A DNA stretch of 64,000 nucleotides from Akkermansiaceae bacterium (GCA_029253285.1 JAQWZU010000056.1:12425-76424), one strand, 5' to 3'; counted from the first letter of the stretch, positions 1-41,097 are shown. The notes: a model not told the origin generated them from the letters alone. Program-made: numbers and translations.

Positions 1-3000
1 CGGCGGGAGGAGTATTAGCAACTTCCGACGGAGGAGTAATCTCTTCACCTTCGGGTGTTTCAGGCTCTTCTTTCACAGGCTCGGGCTCTTCCACGGTCAT
101 TTCGAAGTCTGAGCTCTTGTGAACGGGGAATCCCGTTCCAGCTGGGATGAGGTGTCCAAGAATGACGTTCTCCTTGAATCCGCGGAGAGTATCAATCTTA
201 CCGAGAGTCGCGGCATCAGTCAGGACACGGGTGGTGTCCTGGAAAGACGCAGCCGAGATGAAGGATTCCGTCTCGATCGAGGCCTTGGTGATTCCGAGGA
301 GAACGGGCTCAGCTTCGGCAGGCTTACCACCTTCTGAAGTGACACGCTTGTTTTCGGCATTGAAGGTCGTCTTCTCAATCTGGTCACCCCAAAGGAATTC
401 GGTATCGCCCGGCTCGGTGATCTTCACCTTGCGAAGCATTTGACGGATAATGATCTCAATGTGCTTATCATTAATCTCCACACCCTGCGAACGGTAAACA
501 GTCTGAACCTCGTTATTGAGGTGCTCCTGCAGTGCCTGCGGTCCGCATGCCTCGAGAAGGTCTTCCGGAGCAACAGGTCCCTCGGTAATCTGATCACCAC
601 GCAACACAGTATCTCCTTCACCAACAATCATGTGCTTGCCCATTGGAACAAGATGATCAGCAGTTTCGCCGGATTCGAGGTGAGTCACGATGACCTTGCG
701 CTTACCGCGGACAGTGCCTCCAAAGGAGATTTCACCGTCGAGCTTGGCAATGACACAGGCGTCTTTCGGACGACGAGCCTCGAAGAGTTCGGCAACCCGT
801 GGAAGACCACCGGTAATGTCACCGGTCTTGGCAACTTTACGTGGAGTTCGCGCAAGCTGCGTTCCGCCAGCGATCTTCTGCTTATCCTTCACCGCGAGGC
901 GGGCACCCACTGGAATCGAGTAGCTGTGAAGCACATCACCGGACTTGGCATCAACGATCACAACCTGGGGATGCAGATCCTCTTTGTGTTCGGTAACGGT
1001 CATGCCCTTCTTACCGGTCTGCTTGTCTGTTTCAGACTGCACGGTAATTCCAGAAATCATGTCGCGGAACTCCACCTTACCACCGCTTTCAGCGATGATG
1101 GGGACAGAGTGCGGATCCCAAGTCAGGATCTTCTGCCCTTTCTTCACGTTGCCGCCGTCTCCGACGGTAATGAAGGAACCAATCACGACATTGTAGGATT
1201 CAAGCTCAAGGCCTTTGGCGTCGCGAACGAGAATCGAACCACCTTTGTTCAGAACAACATGGTTTCCATCAACATCCTCAACAGTGCGTAGTTCTTTGAA
1301 ATACATCACACCCTTGCTCTTAGACTTCACCTCGGGCTGCTTGCTGGCACCAATGGCCACACCACCGGAGTGGAATGTCCGCATGGTCAGCTGCGTTCCG
1401 GGCTCACCAATCGACTGGGCAGCGATGATCCCGACGGCCTCACCAATCTTACCGAGATTTCCGGTCGCCAGGTTGAGGCCATAACAAGTCTGGCAACATC
1501 CACGCTCGGATTCACAAGTAAGCGGAGAGCGAATCTTGAGACGCTCGTGACCAACGTTCTCGACGGCTTTGGAAATGTCTTCATCCATCAACTGACCAAT
1601 CTTAACGATGGTTTTTCCAGTGACAGGATCGACGATCTTCTCGCAGGAAGAACGACCAAAGATACGGGACTGCAGTGAAGCTGCTTCCTCGTCACCCGAG
1701 TAAATCGCGTGAACAGTGATTCCTTTTACGGTGCCGCAATCCGGCTCGGTGATGATCACGTCCTGGGAAACATCAACCAACTTACGGGTCATGTATCCTG
1801 AGTCCGCAGTCTTAAGAGCGGTATCGGCGAGACCTTTACGCGCTCCGTGAGTGGAGATGAAGTATTCCAACACCGAGAGGCCTTCACGGAAGTTCGAAGT
1901 AATGGGACGTTCGATAATCTCACCCGACGGCTTGGCCATCAAACCACGCATTCCGGAGAGCTGCTTAATCTGGTTCTTGTTACCACGAGCACCGGAGTCT
2001 ACCATCATGAAGAGCGGGTTAGCTTTCTCGGAACCTTCGTTGTATTCGAGTTTGCGATAAAGAGCATTCGCAATGTTGTCGGAAGCACGAGTCCAAACGT
2101 CGACCACCTTCTGGTAACGCTCACCGTCGGTGATGACACCATTGCGGTAATGCTTGGAAACAGTCTCAATCTCAGCGTAAGCCTTCTTGAGTTCCTCGGG
2201 TTTCTCCTCGGGAATCACCATGTCGACGATACCAATGGAACAACCGGAACGGGTCGCTTCAGCAAAGCCAAGTGACTTCAAGCGGTCCATGGTTTTTACG
2301 GTCTCGGGACCACCGGCACACTGATAGCAGCGCCAAATGATGTCTCCGATTTGTCCTTTGCCAACGTTGTTGTTGATGAAGCCAACTCCTTCAGGCCAGA
2401 TCTCGTTGAAGCGAACACGACCAGGAGTGGTTTCGAGAATCTTGGATTCCTTGTCACCAAAGACAGTATCCTTACCGTAGTCCGGGTTACGCACGCGGAT
2501 ATACTGGTGGTAGTCGACCTTGCGGTTAGCGATCGCGAACTCCACTTCAGTGGTGTTTTCGAAGAGGCTCAAGTGACCTTGCTTTTCGATCTCCTTGGGA
2601 GTGCGAACTCGGGCCCAGGTGAGGTAGTAGGTTCCAAGAATAATATCCTGCGAGGGAGTAATCACGGGACGTCCTGATGCCGGCGAGAAGATGTTATTAG
2701 TCGCAAGCATAAGCTGGCGACACTCCATCTGGGCTTCAACCGAGAGTGGCACGTGCACCGCCATCTGGTCACCATCGAAATCAGCATTGTATGCTCCGCA
2801 AGTCAGCGGGTGCAAACGAATAGCAGATCCCTCAATAAGGACGGGCTCGAAAGCCTGGATGGACAAACGGTGAAGAGTCGGCGCGCGGTTCAGCATCACC
2901 GGATGACCTTTGGTCACTTCAGCAAGGATGTCCCAGACTTCGGTAGTCTTGCGGTCGATCATCTTCTTGGCTGAACGAACAGTATGGCAGTAGCCCAGTT

Positions 3001-4171
3001 CCTTCAGACGACGGATGATGAATGGCTCGAAGAGTGTTAGAGCCATCTTCTTGGGAAGTCCGCACTGGCTGAGCTTGAGCTCAGGACCAATCACGATCAC
3101 GGAACGACCGGAGTAGTCCACGCGCTTACCAAGGAGGTTCTGACGAAAACGTCCGCCCTTACCCTTGAGCATGTCGGAAAGCGACTTGAGAGCACGGTTG
3201 CCGGCTCCGGTCACGGCCCGTCCATGACGTCCGTTATCGAAGAGGGCGTCAACCGCTTCCTGCAGCATGCGCTTCTCGTTTCGGATAATGACCTCAGGAG
3301 TTTTCAACTGCATCAAGTTACGGAGACGATTGTTCCGGTTAATGACACGGCGATAGAGATCGTTCAGGTCGGAAGTCGCGAAGCGGCCACCTTCCAAAGG
3401 CACCAGAGGACGAAGGTCGGGAGGAATGACAGGAAGAACCGTCATGATCATCCACTCGGGACGCGTGTTCGAGTAGAGAAATCCGCGGGCGAGCTTGAGG
3501 CGCTTGGCCAGCTTCTTGCGGTTCTGCTTCGAACGAGTCGCTTCCATGGCTTCTTCAAGCTCAACGATAAGCTTTTCAAGGTCGGTCTGGCTCAGGAGAT
3601 CACGAATCGCCTCGGCACCCATTCCGGCGCGGAAGGCTTCATCACCGTAGTCTTCCTCGGCGTCACGGAGTTCATTCTCGGTGAGGAGCTGGCCAGCCTC
3701 AAGAGGAGTCTTACCAGGCTCGGTCACGAGGTAGTCTTCGTAGTAAATCACACGCTCAAGCTCACGCGCGGTCATGTCGAGGACAAGACCAATACGGGAA
3801 GGCATACACTTGTAGAACCAAATGTGGGAGACCGGAACAGCAAGGTCGATGTGGCCCATGCGCTCACGACGAACGCGAGAGAGGGTCACCTCAACACCAC
3901 AACGGTCACAGACGGTCCCCTTGTGTTTGATGCGCTTGTATTTTCCGCAAGCACATTCCCAGTCGCGGGTCGGTCCGAAGATCCGCTCGCAGAAGAGTCC
4001 GCCTTTTTCCGGCTTGAATGTCCGGTAGTTGATGGTTTCAGGATTAAGAACCTCGCCATTGGACCAAGACCGGATGGTCTCGGGATTGGCAACGGTAATA
4101 GAAACCTGGTCGAAGGGATCCGGCTTGGTATCCACTCCGTAAAGTTCGCGAAGATTAGTTTCAACACTCAT
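1..4171 (-). CDS. rpoC: DNA-directed RNA polymerase subunit beta-prime (C-terminus runs off the window start)
   Basis: Reverse-strand translation from the ATG at 4171..4169 gives [95 protein letters not shown]..., a canonical beta-prime N-terminus with its Zn finger. The frame stays open to position 2 (last residues read ...EVANTPPA). It lies 45 nt downstream of rpoB. It is absent from the ORF track only because it is open at the edge. Confidence 0.95.
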
Positions 4172-4216
4172 GAGATCAGTTTAAGTAGTTTGGATTTTAT
4201 GTTCTCTGGGTTGGAT

Positions 4217-8086
<3,870 letters not shown>

Positions 8087-34304: not shown

Positions 34305-36107
34305 ATGATGCTTTTTCGAACGATCAACCTCGTAACCTGCCTTGCCTCAGTCCTCTTGCTGACGACCTGCAAGCGACCCTTCAGCGACCGGGCTCAGGAC
34401 TTATCCGTCTTCCGCTTTTCCGAAAATGGAGCCCCGGTCACCATGGATCCCGTCCAGTCGGCGACGCAATACGCCAATCTGATGACCACGAGCATCTATG
34501 ACCAACTCTACGAATACAAATATCTTGCCCGCCCTTACGAGCTGAAGCCACGGCTCGCGGAAGCAATGCCGGAGGTCAGCGAGGACGGTCTGACCTACAC
34601 CTACCGAATCAAAAAAGGCATCCTCTATGCCGACAACGAGTGTTTCCCCGCGGGGAAAGGGCGCGAAGTCACCGCGAACGACTTCATCTACTCCATGCGA
34701 CGCCTCTTCGACCCCAAGGCGAGATCCCAAGGCGCCTGGCTCTGGCAGGGGAAAATCAAAGGTCTCGACGAATGGAAGGAAGAAGGCGCCGACTACTCGA
34801 AGCCGATCGAAGGGCTGAGAGCCCTCGATGACTACACCATTCAAATCATCCTGAACAAACCTTTCCCCCAACTCACTTACACCTTCGCAATGGGCTTTTC
34901 TTCGGTAACTCCAAGAGAGGCCGTCGAACATTACGGCAAAGAGTTTGGCCTCAACCCGGTTGGCAGCGGCCCTTACAAGCTCAAATCCTTCAGCACCAAA
35001 AAAGCGATCCTGGTGCGAAACGAAAACTACCGTGAGGAGATCTTCAGCCTCGAAGAAGAAGGATACGACCCGAAAACCCAGAGCGGGTTCGGTCTGGAAA
35101 GATTGGAGGGCAAGAAGCTCCCGATCATGGACACAACTGAGGTTTATTTCATGGAGGAATCGATGACACGTTGGAATTCCCTTAATAAAGGAACGGAGAT
35201 CCACTTCGGCGGCATTCCTACCGAGCTCACCCACATGGTTGCGGAAGAACTCAACCCTCTCGTTCTAAAGGCTAAATATGCCGAAAAATTCACGGCGATG
35301 AACCTTCCCGACCTTGGAACGGTCTACCTCTACTTGAATATGTCGGACCCAAAAATTGGCCACCACTCCGATCCCGAACAAAACCGCCGCAACCTCCTTT
35401 TAAGAAAGGCCATCAGCGCCGCCTACGATTGGCCACAACGAAGTCGTCGATTCTACAACGGCACGGCCGCACTCTTTCCTGGCACGATCCCTCCGGGCCT
35501 GGACGGCTACGACGAGGCCTTTACCCCGGAAATGACCGAGCCCGATTACGAAAAAGCCAAAGCCTACCTCAAGGAAGGGGGGTGGAACGCCGACAACCTT
35601 CCCGTGCTCGACTATAATGGCACCGCCAGTGTGCAAAACAAACAAATGTACGAACAGTTTCGTGGATGGATGGAGAAGATCGGCTATCCACGCAAGAAGA
35701 TTCCCTACGTTCCTTTCGCCACTTTCGGTGACTTCAATAAAGCGGTCAAACAACGCAACTGCACTTTGATCGGAATGGCCTGGGGGTTGGACTATCCCGA
35801 CGCCGAGAACGTCCTCCAGCTTTTCTATGGACCGAATGGCAGCCCGGGATCAAATTCCTCCAACTTCAATGATCCGACGTATAACGAGATGTTTGAGAAA
35901 TCCGTCGTCATGCAACCCGGCCCGGAACGAACCGAAATCTACAAGAAACTCAATCAAATCATCATCGACGATGTCCCCGCGGTATGCGGAATCTCAAGAA
36001 ACACCCCATTCATCTGGCACAAGAACGTGGTCTTCTTACCCTCTCGCAATCCTCACGGAAGCCTCTTTAAATACGCTCTCGTCTTTGACGAATCGGACGA
36101 CCAGTAG
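34305..36107 (+). CDS. ABC transporter substrate-binding lipoprotein, family 5 (Opp/Dpp-type)
   Basis: 600 aa with a lipobox-like N-terminus (VLLLTTC). It shows family-5 SBP character and is the first gene of a five-gene ABC operon. Confidence 0.8.
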   Translation: MMLFRTINLVTCLASVLLLTTCKRPFSDRAQDLSVFRFSENGAPVTMDPVQSATQYANLMTTSIYDQLYEYKYLARPYELKPRLAEAMPEVSEDGLTYTYRIKKGILYADNECFPAGKGREVTANDFIYSMRRLFDPKARSQGAWLWQGKIKGLDEWKEEGADYSKPIEGLRALDDYTIQIILNKPFPQLTYTFAMGFSSVTPREAVEHYGKEFGLNPVGSGPYKLKSFSTKKAILVRNENYREEIFSLEEEGYDPKTQSGFGLERLEGKKLPIMDTTEVYFMEESMTRWNSLNKGTEIHFGGIPTELTHMVAEELNPLVLKAKYAEKFTAMNLPDLGTVYLYLNMSDPKIGHHSDPEQNRRNLLLRKAISAAYDWPQRSRRFYNGTAALFPGTIPPGLDGYDEAFTPEMTEPDYEKAKAYLKEGGWNADNLPVLDYNGTASVQNKQMYEQFRGWMEKIGYPRKKIPYVPFATFGDFNKAVKQRNCTLIGMAWGLDYPDAENVLQLFYGPNGSPGSNSSNFNDPTYNEMFEKSVVMQPGPERTEIYKKLNQIIIDDVPAVCGISRNTPFIWHKNVVFLPSRNPHGSLFKYALVFDESDDQ

Positions 36108-36113
36108 ACAAGT

Positions 36114-37118
36114 ATGGAAACGCTACAATTTGCTCTCAGAAAACTGCTCTACTCAATCCCGCTGCTGTTTGGGGTGACCTTCATCAGCTTCTTCCTAATG
36201 GTCTACCACGGACCGGATCTGACTTATACCATCCTCGGAAAAAACCCAACGCCGGAACAAATCGCCGAAGTCCATCGCGACCTTGGGTATGACCAACCCT
36301 TTCTCAAGCGTTACTTTCTCTTCCTCAAGGAAATCATCACCTTCGATTTCGGCTCTTCCATTTCCTCTGGAGAAAAAGTCTCCTCCATCCTAAAGAAAAG
36401 CGTCCCGGTCTCCTTCATGGTTGCCCTGCCGGCATTCATCCTTTCCAACGCCCTCGGCATCATTCTCGCCCTTTATGCCGCCAATCATCGGGGAAAGAAA
36501 AACGACAAAATCATCATGGTCATGGCAGCCGGAGGAATGAGCGTCAGCTTTCTCATGGTTGTCATCGCCTTCCAAATCATGTTCTGTACGAGCTATGGTC
36601 TGGTGGACTGGTTCCCCGTCCAGGGATGGATCTCGCCTCCGCCGAATTACCCCGACGCCACCACAGGTGAAATCCTTTACTACTATTGGTATTACTACTG
36701 GTCTCATGTCACGGTCCCCACCCTTGCGAGCGTATTTGTCGCCCTGGGATACAACACCCGTTTCTTCCGCGCCGTCATTGTGGAGGAACTCAACAAAGAC
36801 TACGTCCGGACCGCCCGGGCATACGGAGTGAGCAATCGCAAGATCATGATCAAGCATGTCCTCAAAAATGCCATGATCCCGATCTCAACGCGCATCATCA
36901 TCACCATTCCTTTCGTGATCATTGCCGGTAACCTCGTCGTGGAAAAGTTCTTCGGTATTCCCGGAGTTGGCCTCGTCACTTACGACGCAATCACTAATGG
37001 CGATCTTCCTATTGTGAAAGCGGTCGTCACCTCCACCGCTGTGCTCTATGTCATTGCACTCATCCTAACGGATATCGTCTACAAGATGATTGATCCACGA
37101 ACCTCATACAACCAATAA
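36114..37118 (+). CDS. ABC transporter permease (OppB/DppB-like)
   Basis: 334 aa, polytopic, with an EAA-like loop (VRTARAYGVSNRKIMIKHVLKNA). Confidence 0.85.
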   Translation: METLQFALRKLLYSIPLLFGVTFISFFLMVYHGPDLTYTILGKNPTPEQIAEVHRDLGYDQPFLKRYFLFLKEIITFDFGSSISSGEKVSSILKKSVPVSFMVALPAFILSNALGIILALYAANHRGKKNDKIIMVMAAGGMSVSFLMVVIAFQIMFCTSYGLVDWFPVQGWISPPPNYPDATTGEILYYYWYYYWSHVTVPTLASVFVALGYNTRFFRAVIVEELNKDYVRTARAYGVSNRKIMIKHVLKNAMIPISTRIIITIPFVIIAGNLVVEKFFGIPGVGLVTYDAITNGDLPIVKAVVTSTAVLYVIALILTDIVYKMIDPRTSYNQ

Positions 37119-37127
37119 CCCGGAATC

Positions 37128-38012
37128 ATGAGTGAAGAAAACATCAGCACCGGCCGGGATTCTCTCTGGAGCAAGAGTCGACGCAAGTTGATGCGCGACC
37201 GCGCCGGGGTTGCCGCCATGATCGTCGTGGGAGCTTACGGGCTCATCGCAATTCTGGTCTACCTTGGACTCATTGGCGAAAACTGGAGCACCCTGGGCGA
37301 GGAAGGATTTGGAGGGATGAGTTCAGAACATTGGTTCGGCACCAACATCAATGGACAAGACATTTTCTCACGCGCCATTCAGGGTATCAAGACCGCCTTC
37401 GAAGTCGGCCTGGTTGTCGCCGTCACCGCGACCGCTATCGGAGGGATCCTTGGCGCGATCGCCGGTTACTTTCATCGAACCATCGTGGATGAAGTCATCA
37501 TGTGGCTCTATGGCTGTATCGATGCCATCCCCTTCTACCTTTTCGTGGCCGCCGTCGCCTTTTCACTCAAGGGGACCGACCTCCAACCCTGGGGAATGCA
37601 TATCGCCATGATCGCCACCTTCTGGTCAAGCACCTGCCGGATTGTGCGAGGCGAAGTCATTAAAATTCGCGGGCTCGAATACATTCAGGCCGCCAAAGCC
37701 GTCGGAGTAGGACCACTCACCATCGTCCGCCGCCACGTCATGCCCAACACCACGCACATCCTGCTGGTGCAATCGACGATCGCCTTCGTTGGCGCCATCA
37801 AGAGCGAGGTCATCCTCACCTTCCTGGGACTGGGCGTCGTCGATGGCGTTAGTTGGGGCACGATGCTCTCCGAGTCCACCAGTGACGTCCTTCGCGGGCA
37901 CTTCGGCAACTTCCTCGGAGCCTCCGGATTCCTCTTTGTCCTCGTAATCTCATTCAACATGTTCGCCGATGCCCTGCAAGACGCGCTCGACCCCAAGAAA
38001 GTTAGCTCCTGA
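37128..38012 (+). CDS. ABC transporter permease (OppC/DppC-like)
   Basis: 294 aa, polytopic, with the block YIQAAKAVGVGPLTIVRRHVMPN. Confidence 0.85.
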   Translation: MSEENISTGRDSLWSKSRRKLMRDRAGVAAMIVVGAYGLIAILVYLGLIGENWSTLGEEGFGGMSSEHWFGTNINGQDIFSRAIQGIKTAFEVGLVVAVTATAIGGILGAIAGYFHRTIVDEVIMWLYGCIDAIPFYLFVAAVAFSLKGTDLQPWGMHIAMIATFWSSTCRIVRGEVIKIRGLEYIQAAKAVGVGPLTIVRRHVMPNTTHILLVQSTIAFVGAIKSEVILTFLGLGVVDGVSWGTMLSESTSDVLRGHFGNFLGASGFLFVLVISFNMFADALQDALDPKKVSS

Positions 38013-38019
38013 ATCGATC

Positions 38020-39003
38020 ATGTCTGAATCTACATCCAAACCCGTTCTCAGCATTCAGGATCTCGTCGTCGAGTTCAAGACCGAGGCCGGCCTCATCCGG
38101 GCACTTGACGGCGTCAGCTTCGAGGTCCAGGAAGGTGAAGCACTCGGCATCGTCGGTGAATCCGGCTGTGGGAAATCCGTCACTGCCCTCTCCATCCTGA
38201 AACTCATCCCCTCCCCTCCGGGGCGTATTGCCGGAGGAAGCATCGAGCTCGACGGCGTCGATGTCGTCGCGCAACCGGACGACGAAATGCGCAAGGTCCG
38301 CGGCCAACTTGCCTCCATGATTTTCCAGGAGCCCATGACCGCTCTCAACCCGGTCTTCACCATCGGTAACCAGATGGTCGAAATCATCCGCGTGCACCAA
38401 AAGGTATCCAAGGCCGTAGCCAAGAAGCAGGCCATCGAAATGCTTCGCACCGTGAACATCGAGTCACCCGAGCAACGCATCGACCAATACCCTCACGAAC
38501 TCTCCGGCGGAATGCGACAGCGCGTCATGATTGCCATGGCGCTCTCTTGCAGCCCCAAGCTCCTCATCGCTGACGAACCCACCACCGCACTCGACGTTAC
38601 GGTGCAAGCCCAAGTCATGGAGGAGATCAGTCGCCTCCAACGCGAAATGAATATGGGGCTCATCCTCATCACTCACGACCTCGGCGTGATCGCAGAAAGC
38701 TGCACCCGCGTCGTCGTGATGTACTGCGGCAAGATCATCGAAATGGCGGAAACCGAGGAACTCTTCAGAAACCCGCGCCACCCCTACACCCGCGGTCTAC
38801 TCGATTCCATCCCGCGCATCCGCGAGAAGAAACTTGAGACCCTACCCATCATTGAAGGGATGGTCCCCGACCTCGCCAATCTTCCCAAGGGATGCCGTTT
38901 TGCAGATCGTTGCCCCAAAGCCGAAGATCATTGCCGGGAAAACGAACCCCCTCTGGAAGACACCGAAAGCGGTGGAAAAGTCGCCTGTTTCATCCCCAAC
39001 TAA
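38020..39003 (+). CDS. ABC transporter ATP-binding protein (OppD/DppD-like)
   Basis: The start is set at the ATG at 38020 (MSESTSKPVLSIQDL). Motifs present are Walker A (GESGCGKS), the signature (LSGGMRQR), Walker B (LLIADEPTTALD) and an Opp-type C-terminal CxF..RC motif. Confidence 0.9.
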   Translation: MSESTSKPVLSIQDLVVEFKTEAGLIRALDGVSFEVQEGEALGIVGESGCGKSVTALSILKLIPSPPGRIAGGSIELDGVDVVAQPDDEMRKVRGQLASMIFQEPMTALNPVFTIGNQMVEIIRVHQKVSKAVAKKQAIEMLRTVNIESPEQRIDQYPHELSGGMRQRVMIAMALSCSPKLLIADEPTTALDVTVQAQVMEEISRLQREMNMGLILITHDLGVIAESCTRVVVMYCGKIIEMAETEELFRNPRHPYTRGLLDSIPRIREKKLETLPIIEGMVPDLANLPKGCRFADRCPKAEDHCRENEPPLEDTESGGKVACFIPN

Positions 39004-39011
39004 GCAAACTC

Positions 39012-39992
39012 ATGGAAGAGCCACTCGTACAGGTAAAAAACCTCAAAACACACTACCCGATCAAAGGTGGACTGCTGAACCGCCCCATCGGTGCGGTCAA
39101 AGCTGTGAACGGAGTCAGCCTCGATATTCAGGCGGGCCAGACTTTCGGACTCGTGGGTGAATCAGGTTGTGGAAAATCAACCTTCGGCCGTTCCATCTTA
39201 CGCCTTCAGCATGTCACCTCCGGCGAAGTGCAAATCAACGGAAAGGACATTCTCTCTCTCGATCGTCAGGAGTTGGTCAAAGCACGGGCGGACATGCAGA
39301 TCATCTTCCAGGATCCCTACGGTTCCCTGAACCCGCGCATGACCATTCGCCAAATCGTACGAGAACCGCTCGACACCCACAAGATCGGCGAGAGGGCCGA
39401 CCGCGACGCTGAAGTCATGCGTCTCCTCGAAATCTGCGGACTACGTCGATCCGTCGCCGACCGTTACCCTCACGAATTCTCCGGCGGACAACGCCAGCGC
39501 ATCGGCATCGCGCGCGCCCTCGCCCTTAAACCAAAATTCATCGTCGCCGACGAACCCGTCTCCGCCCTCGACGTCTCGGTGCAAAGCCAGGTGCTCAATC
39601 TCATCAGCAACCTGCAAAAAGAATTTGGAATCTCCTTCCTTTTTATCTCGCACGATCTTGCTGTCGTCCAACATATCAGCCACGAAGTCGGCGTGATGTA
39701 TTTTGGCGAACTTGTCGAGCGGGCCCCTGCCGAAGAACTCTACGCCGCGCCCAAGCATCCGTACACCCAGGCCCTGCTTAAAGCCATTCCCCAACCCGAT
39801 CCCGAACGCGAAAAGGAACACGTCTCGCTCACCGGCGACATCCCCTCGCACAATGATCCACCTAAAGGCTGCCCCTTCCAACCCCGCTGCCCCGTCGCCA
39901 AACCCGAGTGCGCCGAAAGCAAACCTCCCCTCAAACTAATCGACGCCGAGGACGCCTCGTCCAAGCACCAGGTTGCCTGCTGGCTCTACTAA
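39012..39992 (+). CDS. ABC transporter ATP-binding protein (OppF/DppF-like)
   Basis: The start is set at the ATG at 39012 (MEEPLVQVKNLKTHY). Motifs present are GESGCGKST, FSGGQRQR and FIVADEPVSALD. Confidence 0.9.
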   Translation: MEEPLVQVKNLKTHYPIKGGLLNRPIGAVKAVNGVSLDIQAGQTFGLVGESGCGKSTFGRSILRLQHVTSGEVQINGKDILSLDRQELVKARADMQIIFQDPYGSLNPRMTIRQIVREPLDTHKIGERADRDAEVMRLLEICGLRRSVADRYPHEFSGGQRQRIGIARALALKPKFIVADEPVSALDVSVQSQVLNLISNLQKEFGISFLFISHDLAVVQHISHEVGVMYFGELVERAPAEELYAAPKHPYTQALLKAIPQPDPEREKEHVSLTGDIPSHNDPPKGCPFQPRCPVAKPECAESKPPLKLIDAEDASSKHQVACWLY

Positions 39993-40074
39993 GCCCTAGG
40001 AACGCCCAATGCGAAGCCACTCAACAACAAATAATCTCGCTGGCCAATTCCGGAATCCCATCCAAAATATCCCC

Positions 40075-40287
40075 ATGCAACTCGAGATCGAATACTGCGC
40101 CCAGTGAAATTACCTTCCCGAAGCTGACCGTGTGTCGGCTGAAATCGAACAAGCCACCGGCAAGCAAGCCAAGCTCGTCGCCGGAGCCGGCGGCATCTTC
40201 GAAATCCGCAAAGACGGCGAAGTTATCTGGAAAAAACAACACAGCGGCCACTTCCCCAAAACCGGCGAAGCCGCGGCTCTTTTCTAG
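40075..40287 (+). CDS. SelW-like (Rdx family) small redox protein with an in-frame TGA at 40105..40107; candidate selenoprotein (CxxU)
   Basis: Reading through the TGA gives MQLEIEYCAQ-U-NYLPEADRVSAEIEQATGKQAKLVAGAGGIFEIRKDGEVIWKKQHSGHFPKTGEAAALF, ending at the TAG at 40285. The IEYCxxU N-terminus and the GGxFEI..DGExIW.K...G.FP core match the Rdx/SelW pattern. The ORF track splits the gene at the TGA. Confidence 0.7.
40122..40140 (+). other. candidate bacterial SECIS stem-loop downstream of the in-frame UGA
   Basis: AGCUGAC-CGUGU-GUCGGCU forms a 7-bp stem (one G-U pair) with a G/U-containing apical loop. The stem begins 14 nt after the UGA. A possible lower stem pairs CGA with UCG. Confidence 0.45.
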
Positions 40288-40446
40288 GAGAAAGTTGTTC
40301 CTTTCTACGGAGCTTTGACCTCAATCCCAGAGCCCTCCATTCTCACTCTTCTTTGCCTTACCGGACTCGCGTTCATTCGCCGGCGGCGCCAGAAGCACTT
40401 CAAATTTAAATCTAAGCCCGCGGTGCCTTTTGCGCCCCAGGCCCTT

Positions 40447-41097
40447 TTATTGAGCCAAGGCCTTCTTCACCGTTTCCCCGACCCGCTTCCCCTGTAAATC
40501 AATCGCTACCGGTTTGAAATGATAAGGATCTTTGTAATGCTCCGGGTGGCCTTTTGAAATACCGTGCAGGTCATTGATCGTCGCTCCATATTTTTGAGCC
40601 AGCTCCCGCACAATACGATTCCGTTCATCAACCCTCGGATTCAGCTTGTTCACATTACTAGTCGATTGAAGCGGTGTCGAGAGAGCTAGAATGAGCTTCG
40701 CTTTCGGCGCCTTCTTTCGAGTCAGCTGCAAGGCCTTTTCATAACCTTCCCGATATTCATCTTCGGAGTATCCCATACCATGGAGGCCATTGTTAAAGTG
40801 AATCACGGCATACTGGTAGTGACTGAACATCGCATCCAGCTGGGCAAAAAAGGCCGGGTCGGACACACAGGCCGAAGTCGCAAAGCGCGCGCAGCTCGCC
40901 TTTCCCTGCAATTGCTTCTCAGCCACCTTGAAATACCCCTTGGTAATCGAATCTCCCACCAACATCACCCGAGGGAGTTTCTTATCCGTGGCTTTGGCGA
41001 TCCAAATATCGCACCACTCGGTTCCTTCTCGATGAATCGTTGTTTCCGCCAAAATTGGCAGCACCATCACAACGAATAAGATCAGCGTTTTTATCAT
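40447..41097 (-). CDS. SGNH/GDSL-family hydrolase, secreted
   Basis: 216 aa with a signal-like N-terminus, block I (VMLVGDSITKGY), HFNNGLHG, and a C-terminal DPYHF block. Confidence 0.75.
   Translation of the reverse strand: MIKTLILFVVMVLPILAETTIHREGTEWCDIWIAKATDKKLPRVMLVGDSITKGYFKVAEKQLQGKASCARFATSACVSDPAFFAQLDAMFSHYQYAVIHFNNGLHGMGYSEDEYREGYEKALQLTRKKAPKAKLILALSTPLQSTSNVNKLNPRVDERNRIVRELAQKYGATINDLHGISKGHPEHYKDPYHFKPVAIDLQGKRVGETVKKALAQ

Follow-up and report, generated by a model that had tools for sequence, protein, structure and literature searches.

The window analysed here is a stretch of 64,000 nucleotides of DNA from an Akkermansiaceae bacterium. In it, a gap of 454 nt separates the second ATPase gene of an Opp/Dpp-type ABC transporter operon from a convergent gene for a GDSL/SGNH hydrolase, and this gap is host to a SelW-like gene whose frame continues through an in-frame TGA. 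The initial annotation of the window had placed the gene in a gap of about 450 nt between these same neighbours, and both its coordinates and its read-through translation were reproduced identically on recomputation. The features of the locus are the following.

34305-39992: Opp/Dpp-type ABC transporter operon, upstream of the SelW-like gene, with the end of its second ATPase gene at 39992
40075..40287, + strand: predicted SelW-like (Rdx family) selenoprotein coding sequence, 70 residues, MQLEIEYCAQ-U-NYLPEADRVSAEIEQATGKQAKLVAGAGGIFEIRKDGEVIWKKQHSGHFPKTGEAAALF (translation, HMMs, dN/dS)
40096..40107, + strand: redox motif codons TGC-GCC-CAG-TGA, C8-A-Q-U11 (CxxU) (alignment with Cys-form homologues)
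40105..40107, + strand: in-frame UGA, putative selenocysteine codon (73 homologous loci share the TGA with the window, another 38, more distant, have a Cys codon)
40122..40140, + strand: SECIS-type hairpin inside the coding sequence, stem 40123-40128 (GCUGAC) with 40134-40139 (GUCGGC) (comparative evidence)
40119..40147, + strand: possible 3-bp lower helix, 40119-40121 with 40145-40147, weakly supported (MFE fold)
40132..40287, + strand: 51-codon ORF of gene callers with its GTG start in the SECIS loop, an annotation artefact and not a separate gene
40447-41097, - strand: GDSL/SGNH hydrolase, convergent, downstream of the SelW-like gene

The SelW-like gene and its in-frame TGA

The frame starts at the ATG at 40075, passes the TGA at codon 11 (40105-40107) and ends with the TAG at 40285-40287. 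Another in-frame ATG is present upstream at 40009, with no stop between it and 40075. In some homologues of the gene a stop lies right before the conserved Met, which supports 40075 as the start. The standard ORF list contains only two entries at this locus, one of 32 codons that stops at the TGA and one of 51 codons that begins with GTG 40132. A read-through ORF scan found no second credible selenoprotein gene in the window, and a promoter and terminator scan near the SelW-like gene yielded nothing useful. The synteny of the gene is kept only in relatives that are 94-96% identical (L001-L003), with other contexts elsewhere, and the neighbours of the gene therefore give no clue to its function.

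The 70-residue product, scored with C in place of U, reaches 59.8 bits (E = 3e-16) against the Pfam Rdx family (PF10262, cutoff 22.6), and 49.6 bits against the NCBIfam model TIGR02174 (CXXU_selWTH, cutoff 34.2). An HMM comparison of the read-through product with the Rdx family had been recommended in the initial annotation, which assigned the gene to the SelW/SelT/SelH group; in that comparison, the 59 amino acids after the TGA score above the Pfam cutoff by themselves (35.8 bits, E = 9e-9). Judged by these profiles, the assignment holds, and the window protein is a clear member of the Rdx/SelT-SelW-SelH family. The best-scoring NCBIfam model is NF041051 (SelTWH_Campy), describing a Campylobacter-type SelT/SelW/SelH (seleno)protein of 70 residues, whose profile of ~70 residues is matched by the window protein almost end to end. 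The score of 74.3 bits does not reach the equivalog cutoff of 88 bits; by this measure the window protein is related to the NF041051 proteins but stands outside their orthologous group.

The closest sequences in the PDB are Cys-form bacterial SelW-related proteins, headed by 2fa8 (E = 5e-10) and followed by 3dex, 2ojl, 2p0g, 2oka and 2obk. The CAQ-U of the window protein aligns with the CTQC of Atu0228 (2fa8) and SAV_2001 (3dex). The TGA thus falls on the second Cys of CxxC, in keeping with the earlier statement that position 4 of the redox motif is Cys or Sec in this family. The fold was assessed with an AlphaFold2 model of P0006, a full-length homologue (67% identical) that carries W at the U position. 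The predicted fold is thioredoxin-like (pLDDT 88.7), with the order b1-a1-b2-b3-b4-a2 (E-H-E-E-E-H) and with CxxU (residues 8-11) placed where strand 1 (3-8) passes into helix 1 (14-28). In the PDB, each of the 22 best structural matches to the model is a SelW-related protein. For instance, the Cys-form Rdx structures of Atu0228 (2fa8), BPP (2ojl), SAV_2001 (3dex), PA (2oka) and V. cholerae (2p0g) have the same fold, with TM scores of 0.81-0.84 (0.84 for 2fa8 and 2ojl) and an rmsd of ~2.2 A to the model, and have in common with the window protein the position of the CxxC/U motif as well as the GG-x-F-E-[IV] and FP motifs. In the case of mouse SelW (2npb), which belongs to the same superfamily and also has CxxU, the TM score is 0.65 and the identity 19%.

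The TGA is conserved well beyond the closest relatives. A scan of one genome per species gave 33 related loci. In 26 of them the frame is intact and the TGA is found at the same codon, five have Cys, and the other two (L032 and L033) are partial matches that do not cover the motif. The 26 TGA loci comprise 24 from Verrucomicrobiales/Akkermansiaceae, among them Oceaniferula spumae NT6N (a complete genome) and Roseibacillus persicicus KCTC 12988, and two from gammaproteobacterial metagenome-assembled genomes (MAGs). Carriers of this TGA gene that are in culture are O. spumae NT6N (NZ_AP026866.1, with the gene near 211.5 kb), R. persicicus KCTC 12988 and strain N1E253 (GCA_013391475.1). A further 80 loci came from a metagenome scan, and of these 47 have TGA and 33 have Cys. 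Besides the window, 73 loci therefore carry TGA and 38 carry Cys at the same codon or alignment column. No frameshift or extra stop was found in the 72 TGA forms that are complete. The TGA forms are 36-100% identical to the window protein, whereas no Cys form exceeds 46% identity among the 112 loci sampled.

The sequence on both sides of the TGA is under purifying selection. Downstream of the hairpin, dN/dS is 0.16 in 22 non-redundant Verrucomicrobial sequences; over the seven codons upstream of the TGA it is 0.15. It follows that both sides are translated in one frame. The residues I-E-Y-C upstream of the TGA are invariant while their codons vary synonymously (ATC/ATT/ATA, TAC/TAT, TGC/TGT). 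The initial annotation had argued from the family-like frame beyond the TGA that it is not a true stop, and the argument is strengthened by this selection and by the 59 residues that follow; it had also named a decaying pseudogene as an outcome that would speak against the gene, and not one of the 73 other TGA loci is decayed. TGA is also the stop of six of the 43 other large ORFs in the window, and UGA is thus not reassigned in this organism, making the recoding site-specific.

The TGA forms and the Cys forms differ in more than the redox residue. Directly after it, the TGA forms read U-N-Y-x-P (U-N-Y-L-P-E-A-D-R-V in the window protein) and the Cys forms C-R-W-L-L, as in the C-T-Q-C-R-W-L-L-R-A-A-W of the Cys-form structures. 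The N-Y-x-P is conserved at the protein level only in the TGA forms. The third codon positions of N-Y-L-P-E vary freely, indicating that this stretch is conserved as protein and not as RNA. The Cys forms are also longer, extending a median of 78 residues beyond the redox residue as compared to 61 in the TGA forms, due to a C-terminal KELKQxVRDRIAP segment that the TGA forms do not have. Across L001-L117, the split in build between short TGA forms without this segment and long Cys forms is clean. The two gammaproteobacterial TGA forms (L026 1139-1378 and L027 2989-3228) are 44-46% identical to the window protein, and their stretch after the UGA (NYLPEADRV) and their hairpin are nearly as in Verrucomicrobia. 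This likeness is suggestive of transfer of gene and SECIS across phyla, or of mis-binning.

The hairpin downstream of the UGA

The mRNA downstream of the UGA can form a hairpin that starts 14 nt after it, with an apical loop of 5 nt (CGUGU, 40129-40133) that starts 21 nt after it. Taken on its own, this structure is unremarkable. The fold energy of about -10 kcal/mol for 6-7 bp corresponds to z-scores of -0.89 on 61 nt and -2.0 on 46 nt, which is not significantly above the stability of shuffled sequences. Moreover, a search for TGA followed by 19-25 nt, a stem of at least 5 bp and a CGUG loop gave one match in the window, as compared to ~1 per 64 kb expected by chance, meaning that the TGA-plus-hairpin pattern alone has no discriminating power. 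The significance of the hairpin thus comes from its conservation and covariation.

These were measured on an alignment of 74 TGA-form sequences, the window included, with 500 column shuffles and slid registers as controls. The hairpin occupies the same columns in all 74 sequences, although the stem sequences of distant TGA forms diverge strongly (GCCGCC/GGCGGC, GCCGAG/CUCGGC and GCUUCC/GGAGGC, for example). Paired cells amount to 92% as compared to 75% in the shuffles, cells changed in a compensatory manner on both sides number 82 versus 26 +/- 6, and the covariation score is 0.453 versus 0.134; for each of these three measures, none of the 500 shuffles reached the observed value. In the slid registers only 12-48% of cells are paired. 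For instance, the pair of alignment columns 30-42 occurs as all six standard pair types (CG 38, UA 10, UG 10, GC 8, GU 2, AU 1), the pair 32-40 as four types (AU 36, CG 25, UG 5, GU 3), and the pair 33-39 as CG 65, GC 3, UA 2 and AU 1. The loop follows the consensus N-G-K-N-U: all 74 sequences have the G at loop position 2 (40130, G35), and at least 90% have the last U.

The outer pair A40122-U40140 is unpaired in 18 of 71 distinct sequences, and the conserved core of the stem is therefore 6 bp. The initial annotation had described a 7-bp stem-loop at 40122-40140, 14 nt after the UGA; position and spacing are borne out, while only six of the seven pairs are conserved. Its reading of the stem-loop as a SECIS gains from the fixed position, the compensatory substitutions and the invariant loop G of the 74 TGA forms. 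In the case of the possible lower helix, 79% of cells are paired, and C40119-G40147 is unpaired in 15 of 27 sequences. The hairpin also leaves a trace in codon usage. Synonymous variation in the Verrucomicrobial sequences is suppressed only at codons +7 to +10 (GAC in 21 of 22, CGU or CGG only, GUG in 21 of 22, UCN only), whereas at invariant Gly, Pro and Phe codons elsewhere it is close to saturation.

The SECIS of E. coli fdhF is an in-frame hairpin that directly follows the UGA and carries G-U in its small apical loop, ~20 nt from the UGA. The window hairpin likewise lies in frame directly 3' of the UGA, with a G-U loop and similar spacing, but its stem is shorter (6-7 bp), it shows no evident bulged U, and its loop is an N-G-K-N-U pentaloop; by analogy with fdhF, it may be bound by SelB. 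Bacterial SECIS elements have been described as stem-loops right after the UGA whose small apical loop includes a G (PMC1088965), and the hairpin at 40122-40140 has such a loop, G included, just 3' of the UGA. In its sequence features it is thus as expected of a bacterial SECIS, and presumably a site of SelB binding. No match to any Rfam SECIS family was obtained, either at the gathering threshold over the whole window or at E <= 10 on positions 39990-40450, a null that is uninformative because bacterial SECIS elements are short and gene-specific.

Probable decoding of the UGA

The segment 40075-40287 is very probably a functional gene for a small thioredoxin-fold Rdx protein with a Cys8-x-x-Sec11 active site, in which the UGA is decoded as Sec by the standard bacterial mechanism. 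Following that mechanism, the UGA at 40105 would be read as selenocysteine and not as a stop. The mRNA just 3' of it would fold into the hairpin 40122-40140, with its 5-nt loop and the G-U in it, and SelB, a specialised elongation factor, would bind to this hairpin together with GTP and Sec-tRNA(Sec). Anchored at this site when the ribosome arrives at UGA-11, SelB would deliver the Sec-tRNA(Sec), and translation would go on for 59 more codons to give the 70-residue protein. By family resemblance, the product is probably a thiol/selenol oxidoreductase that cycles via a Cys8-Sec11 selenenylsulfide, formed by the two residues where helix 1 begins. Bacterial SelW-like proteins have no known substrate (PMC1088965).

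Three other readings of the locus can be weighed against Sec insertion. It is very unlikely that the UGA is read through with a residue other than Sec, whereby Trp or Cys would be inserted by a near-cognate tRNA, or by a local or lineage-wide reassignment of UGA, and the hairpin would merely slow termination. The inserted residue is not identifiable from sequence alone, several metagenome gene callers using code 4 gave W at this codon, and the Sec machinery was not found in the window or in the other DNA examined. However, TGA acts as a normal stop for window ORFs (six of 43), and the codon in question occupies the place of a redox Cys in the CxxC of the Cys forms, a motif that would be lost with Trp. 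A Cys at this place could be had directly by a one-base change to TGC or TGT, yet this change has been made by none of the 74 TGA forms over a range of 36-100% identity. In addition, the invariant loop G and the fixed spacing fit the pattern of a SelB-dependent SECIS.

Termination at the TGA, with the 51-codon ORF from GTG 40132 as the real gene, is what the output of most gene callers amounts to, and JGI even names such products 'predicted Rdx family selenoprotein'. The result would be a truncated Rdx-like peptide without the redox motif that, going by the structural model, would be left without strand 1 and one half of helix 1. This is highly improbable in view of the ten codons upstream of the TGA, which are conserved in the same frame (dN/dS 0.15), and of the GTG itself, which lies in the hairpin loop, is replaced by GTA in L013 with the downstream frame still kept, and has no start codon as its counterpart in distant TGA forms (AGT/GGT-CTG or -TTG). 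The third reading, a pseudogene that arose from a Cys-form Rdx gene by a nonsense mutation of TGC/TGT to TGA, would require just one base change in a Cys codon, and would suit a gene that is unannotated or truncated in databases. But the TGA is common to 73 other loci from Verrucomicrobia, Gammaproteobacteria and diverse metagenomes, with open frames down to 36% identity; dN/dS is ~0.16 downstream of it; no Cys form is closer than 46% identity; and a dedicated, conserved RNA structure follows it. On these comparative data the pseudogene can be regarded as already effectively refuted.

Decoding of the UGA as Sec would depend on the genes selA, selB, selC and selD, which are not expected to be linked to a SelW-like gene. 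NCBIfam and Pfam scans found no selA, selB or selD among the ~40 large ORFs of the window, whose content apart from the SelW-like gene includes an rpoB/ribosomal cluster, a dcw/mur cell-wall cluster, the ABC operon, RsgA, MazG and assorted enzymes. A tRNA scan of the 64-kb window found no tRNA-Sec, its two tRNAs being Trp and Thr. Likewise, no sel genes or tRNA-Sec were found by tRNA scans and motif regexes in the 121 loci, in 533 kb of retrieved DNA, or in the +/-10 kb contexts of two orthologues, and the selenoproteome literature that was searched contains no statement on Sec decoding in Verrucomicrobia.

A second kind of TGA-containing redox gene is present in two related Roseibacillus-type Verrucomicrobia genomes, ~2.6 kb from the SelW-like gene. 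It is a candidate selenoprotein gene, an ORF of the thioredoxin family (PF00085, 56-59 bits; L015 5798-6172 and L019 5702-6190, both on the - strand) where the TGA takes the place of the first Cys of CxxC (motifs W-U-G-E-C and T-U-P-P-C); a partial copy lies at the edge of L018. Its hairpin, CCUC-CGUGYU-GGGG, has a loop that starts 23 nt after the UGA and is of the CGUG type, as in the SelW-like gene. The window contains no homologue of this UxxC gene. The occurrence of TGA at a catalytic Cys, together with similar hairpins, in two unrelated redox genes is hard to explain unless the clade decodes Sec.

A more speculative reading, which we regard as possible though doubtful, is that the short (~70-residue) TGA forms represent an obligately selenocysteine-dependent lineage of the Rdx family. 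It would account for the lack of any Cys form above 46% identity, for a SECIS position and loop G that are locked across phyla, and for an N-Y-x-P that is specific to the TGA forms. If true, the CGUG- SECIS loop common to the SelW-like gene and the neighbouring Trx-like UxxC gene in Verrucomicrobia would imply a clade-specific SelB recognition code, and the near-identical SECIS in two gammaproteobacterial MAGs would imply that gene and SECIS were transferred together across phyla.

Relatives, annotation and neighbouring sequences

Bacterial SelW-like CxxU selenoproteins have been known since 2004-2005. Identical sequence recurs on many ENA marine scaffolds, for example CAST23-2_SAMN12109739_METAG-scaffold_38, the closest species representatives being 94-96% identical, and the source population of the window is a common marine Akkermansiaceae-like Verrucomicrobium. 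Its nearest representatives in GTDB are JAKMEV01 (MOX_bin55), NHEN01 (TMED86) and JAAEZT01. In the Sargasso Sea and GOS surveys, SelW-like proteins came out as the most abundant prokaryotic selenoprotein family, with 48 genes and with 427 genes in 40 samples, respectively, and they are especially common in marine samples (PMC1088965, PMC2398784). The family is also one with few Cys homologues in Sec-using organisms (Zhang et al. 2006; PMC1794560). The window gene shares with the Sargasso and GOS proteins the family, the CxxU, the SECIS just 3' of the UGA with its loop G, and the marine habitat; there is no difference of kind, the window copy belonging to a marine Akkermansiaceae/Verrucomicrobiales population. 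It is an ordinary member of a known family and leaves the knowledge of selenoproteins unchanged, while adding marine Akkermansiaceae/Verrucomicrobiales to the carriers of SelW-like proteins. The SECIS of eukaryotes is built differently and lies in the 3' UTR (PMC1088965), and mammalian selenoprotein W differs accordingly from the window gene, where the SECIS-type hairpin lies inside the coding sequence.

The practical value of the locus is in annotation, because public records hold a fragment, a W product or an opposite-strand ORF in place of the gene. Of 35 database homologues, 30 are only 51-60 aa long and start at M/V-SAEI, and the few full-length database entries show W in place of Sec, a consequence of gene calling with code 4. 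A third type of miscall is a spurious 73-aa ORF on the opposite strand. One copy in this set of miscalls (P0001-P0035, L118-L121) bears the NCBI name 'hypothetical protein HW115_01500'. The initial annotation had predicted that gene callers would miss the gene or truncate it to 10 codons; the gene is indeed missed, but in place of a 10-codon product the callers give the 51-aa ORF, the W product or the opposite-strand 73-aa ORF. An abundant marine selenoprotein is thus systematically mis-annotated, as a 51-residue fragment, as a W product or by being missing altogether. The covariation-tested SECIS consensus for the subfamily (UGA, 15 nt, 6-bp stem, N-G-K-N-U loop) is well supported and could be used to fix these annotations.

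The spacer downstream of the SelW-like gene (40288-40446) contains an orphan PEP-CTERM sorting-domain sequence, TSIPEPSILTLLCLTGLAFIRRRRQ, at 40324-40386, in frame after the TAG of the gene. It scores 23-26 bits against TIGR02595 (cutoff 16) and is the only such motif in the window. The sequence lies inside an insertion of ~85 nt that is absent from L001-L003 (94-96% identical); in L038 it is present but out of frame. Read-through of the TAG into this sequence was considered and rejected on these grounds, and the sequence is probably a relic of the 3' end of a PEP-CTERM gene. Upstream of the SelW-like gene, four Oceaniferula-type genomes have a tRNA-Pro (UGG) at a distance of ~100-400 nt, on either strand, that is not in the window.

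L009 2603-2679: tRNA-Pro (UGG)
L020 2841-2917: tRNA-Pro (UGG)
L024 2763-2839, - strand: tRNA-Pro (UGG)
L034 9672-9748, - strand: tRNA-Pro (UGG)

At the start of the window, the ORFs 440-1291 (+) and 3224-4309 (+) gave no family hits. The 1289-aa ORF at 4217-8086 (-) is taken as rpoB, with a putative rpoC downstream of it, and the two ORFs are probably antisense to this rpoC gene (window 1-4200, -), which runs off the window start. The 1.9-kb 'gap' at 1292-3223 is therefore probably not empty.
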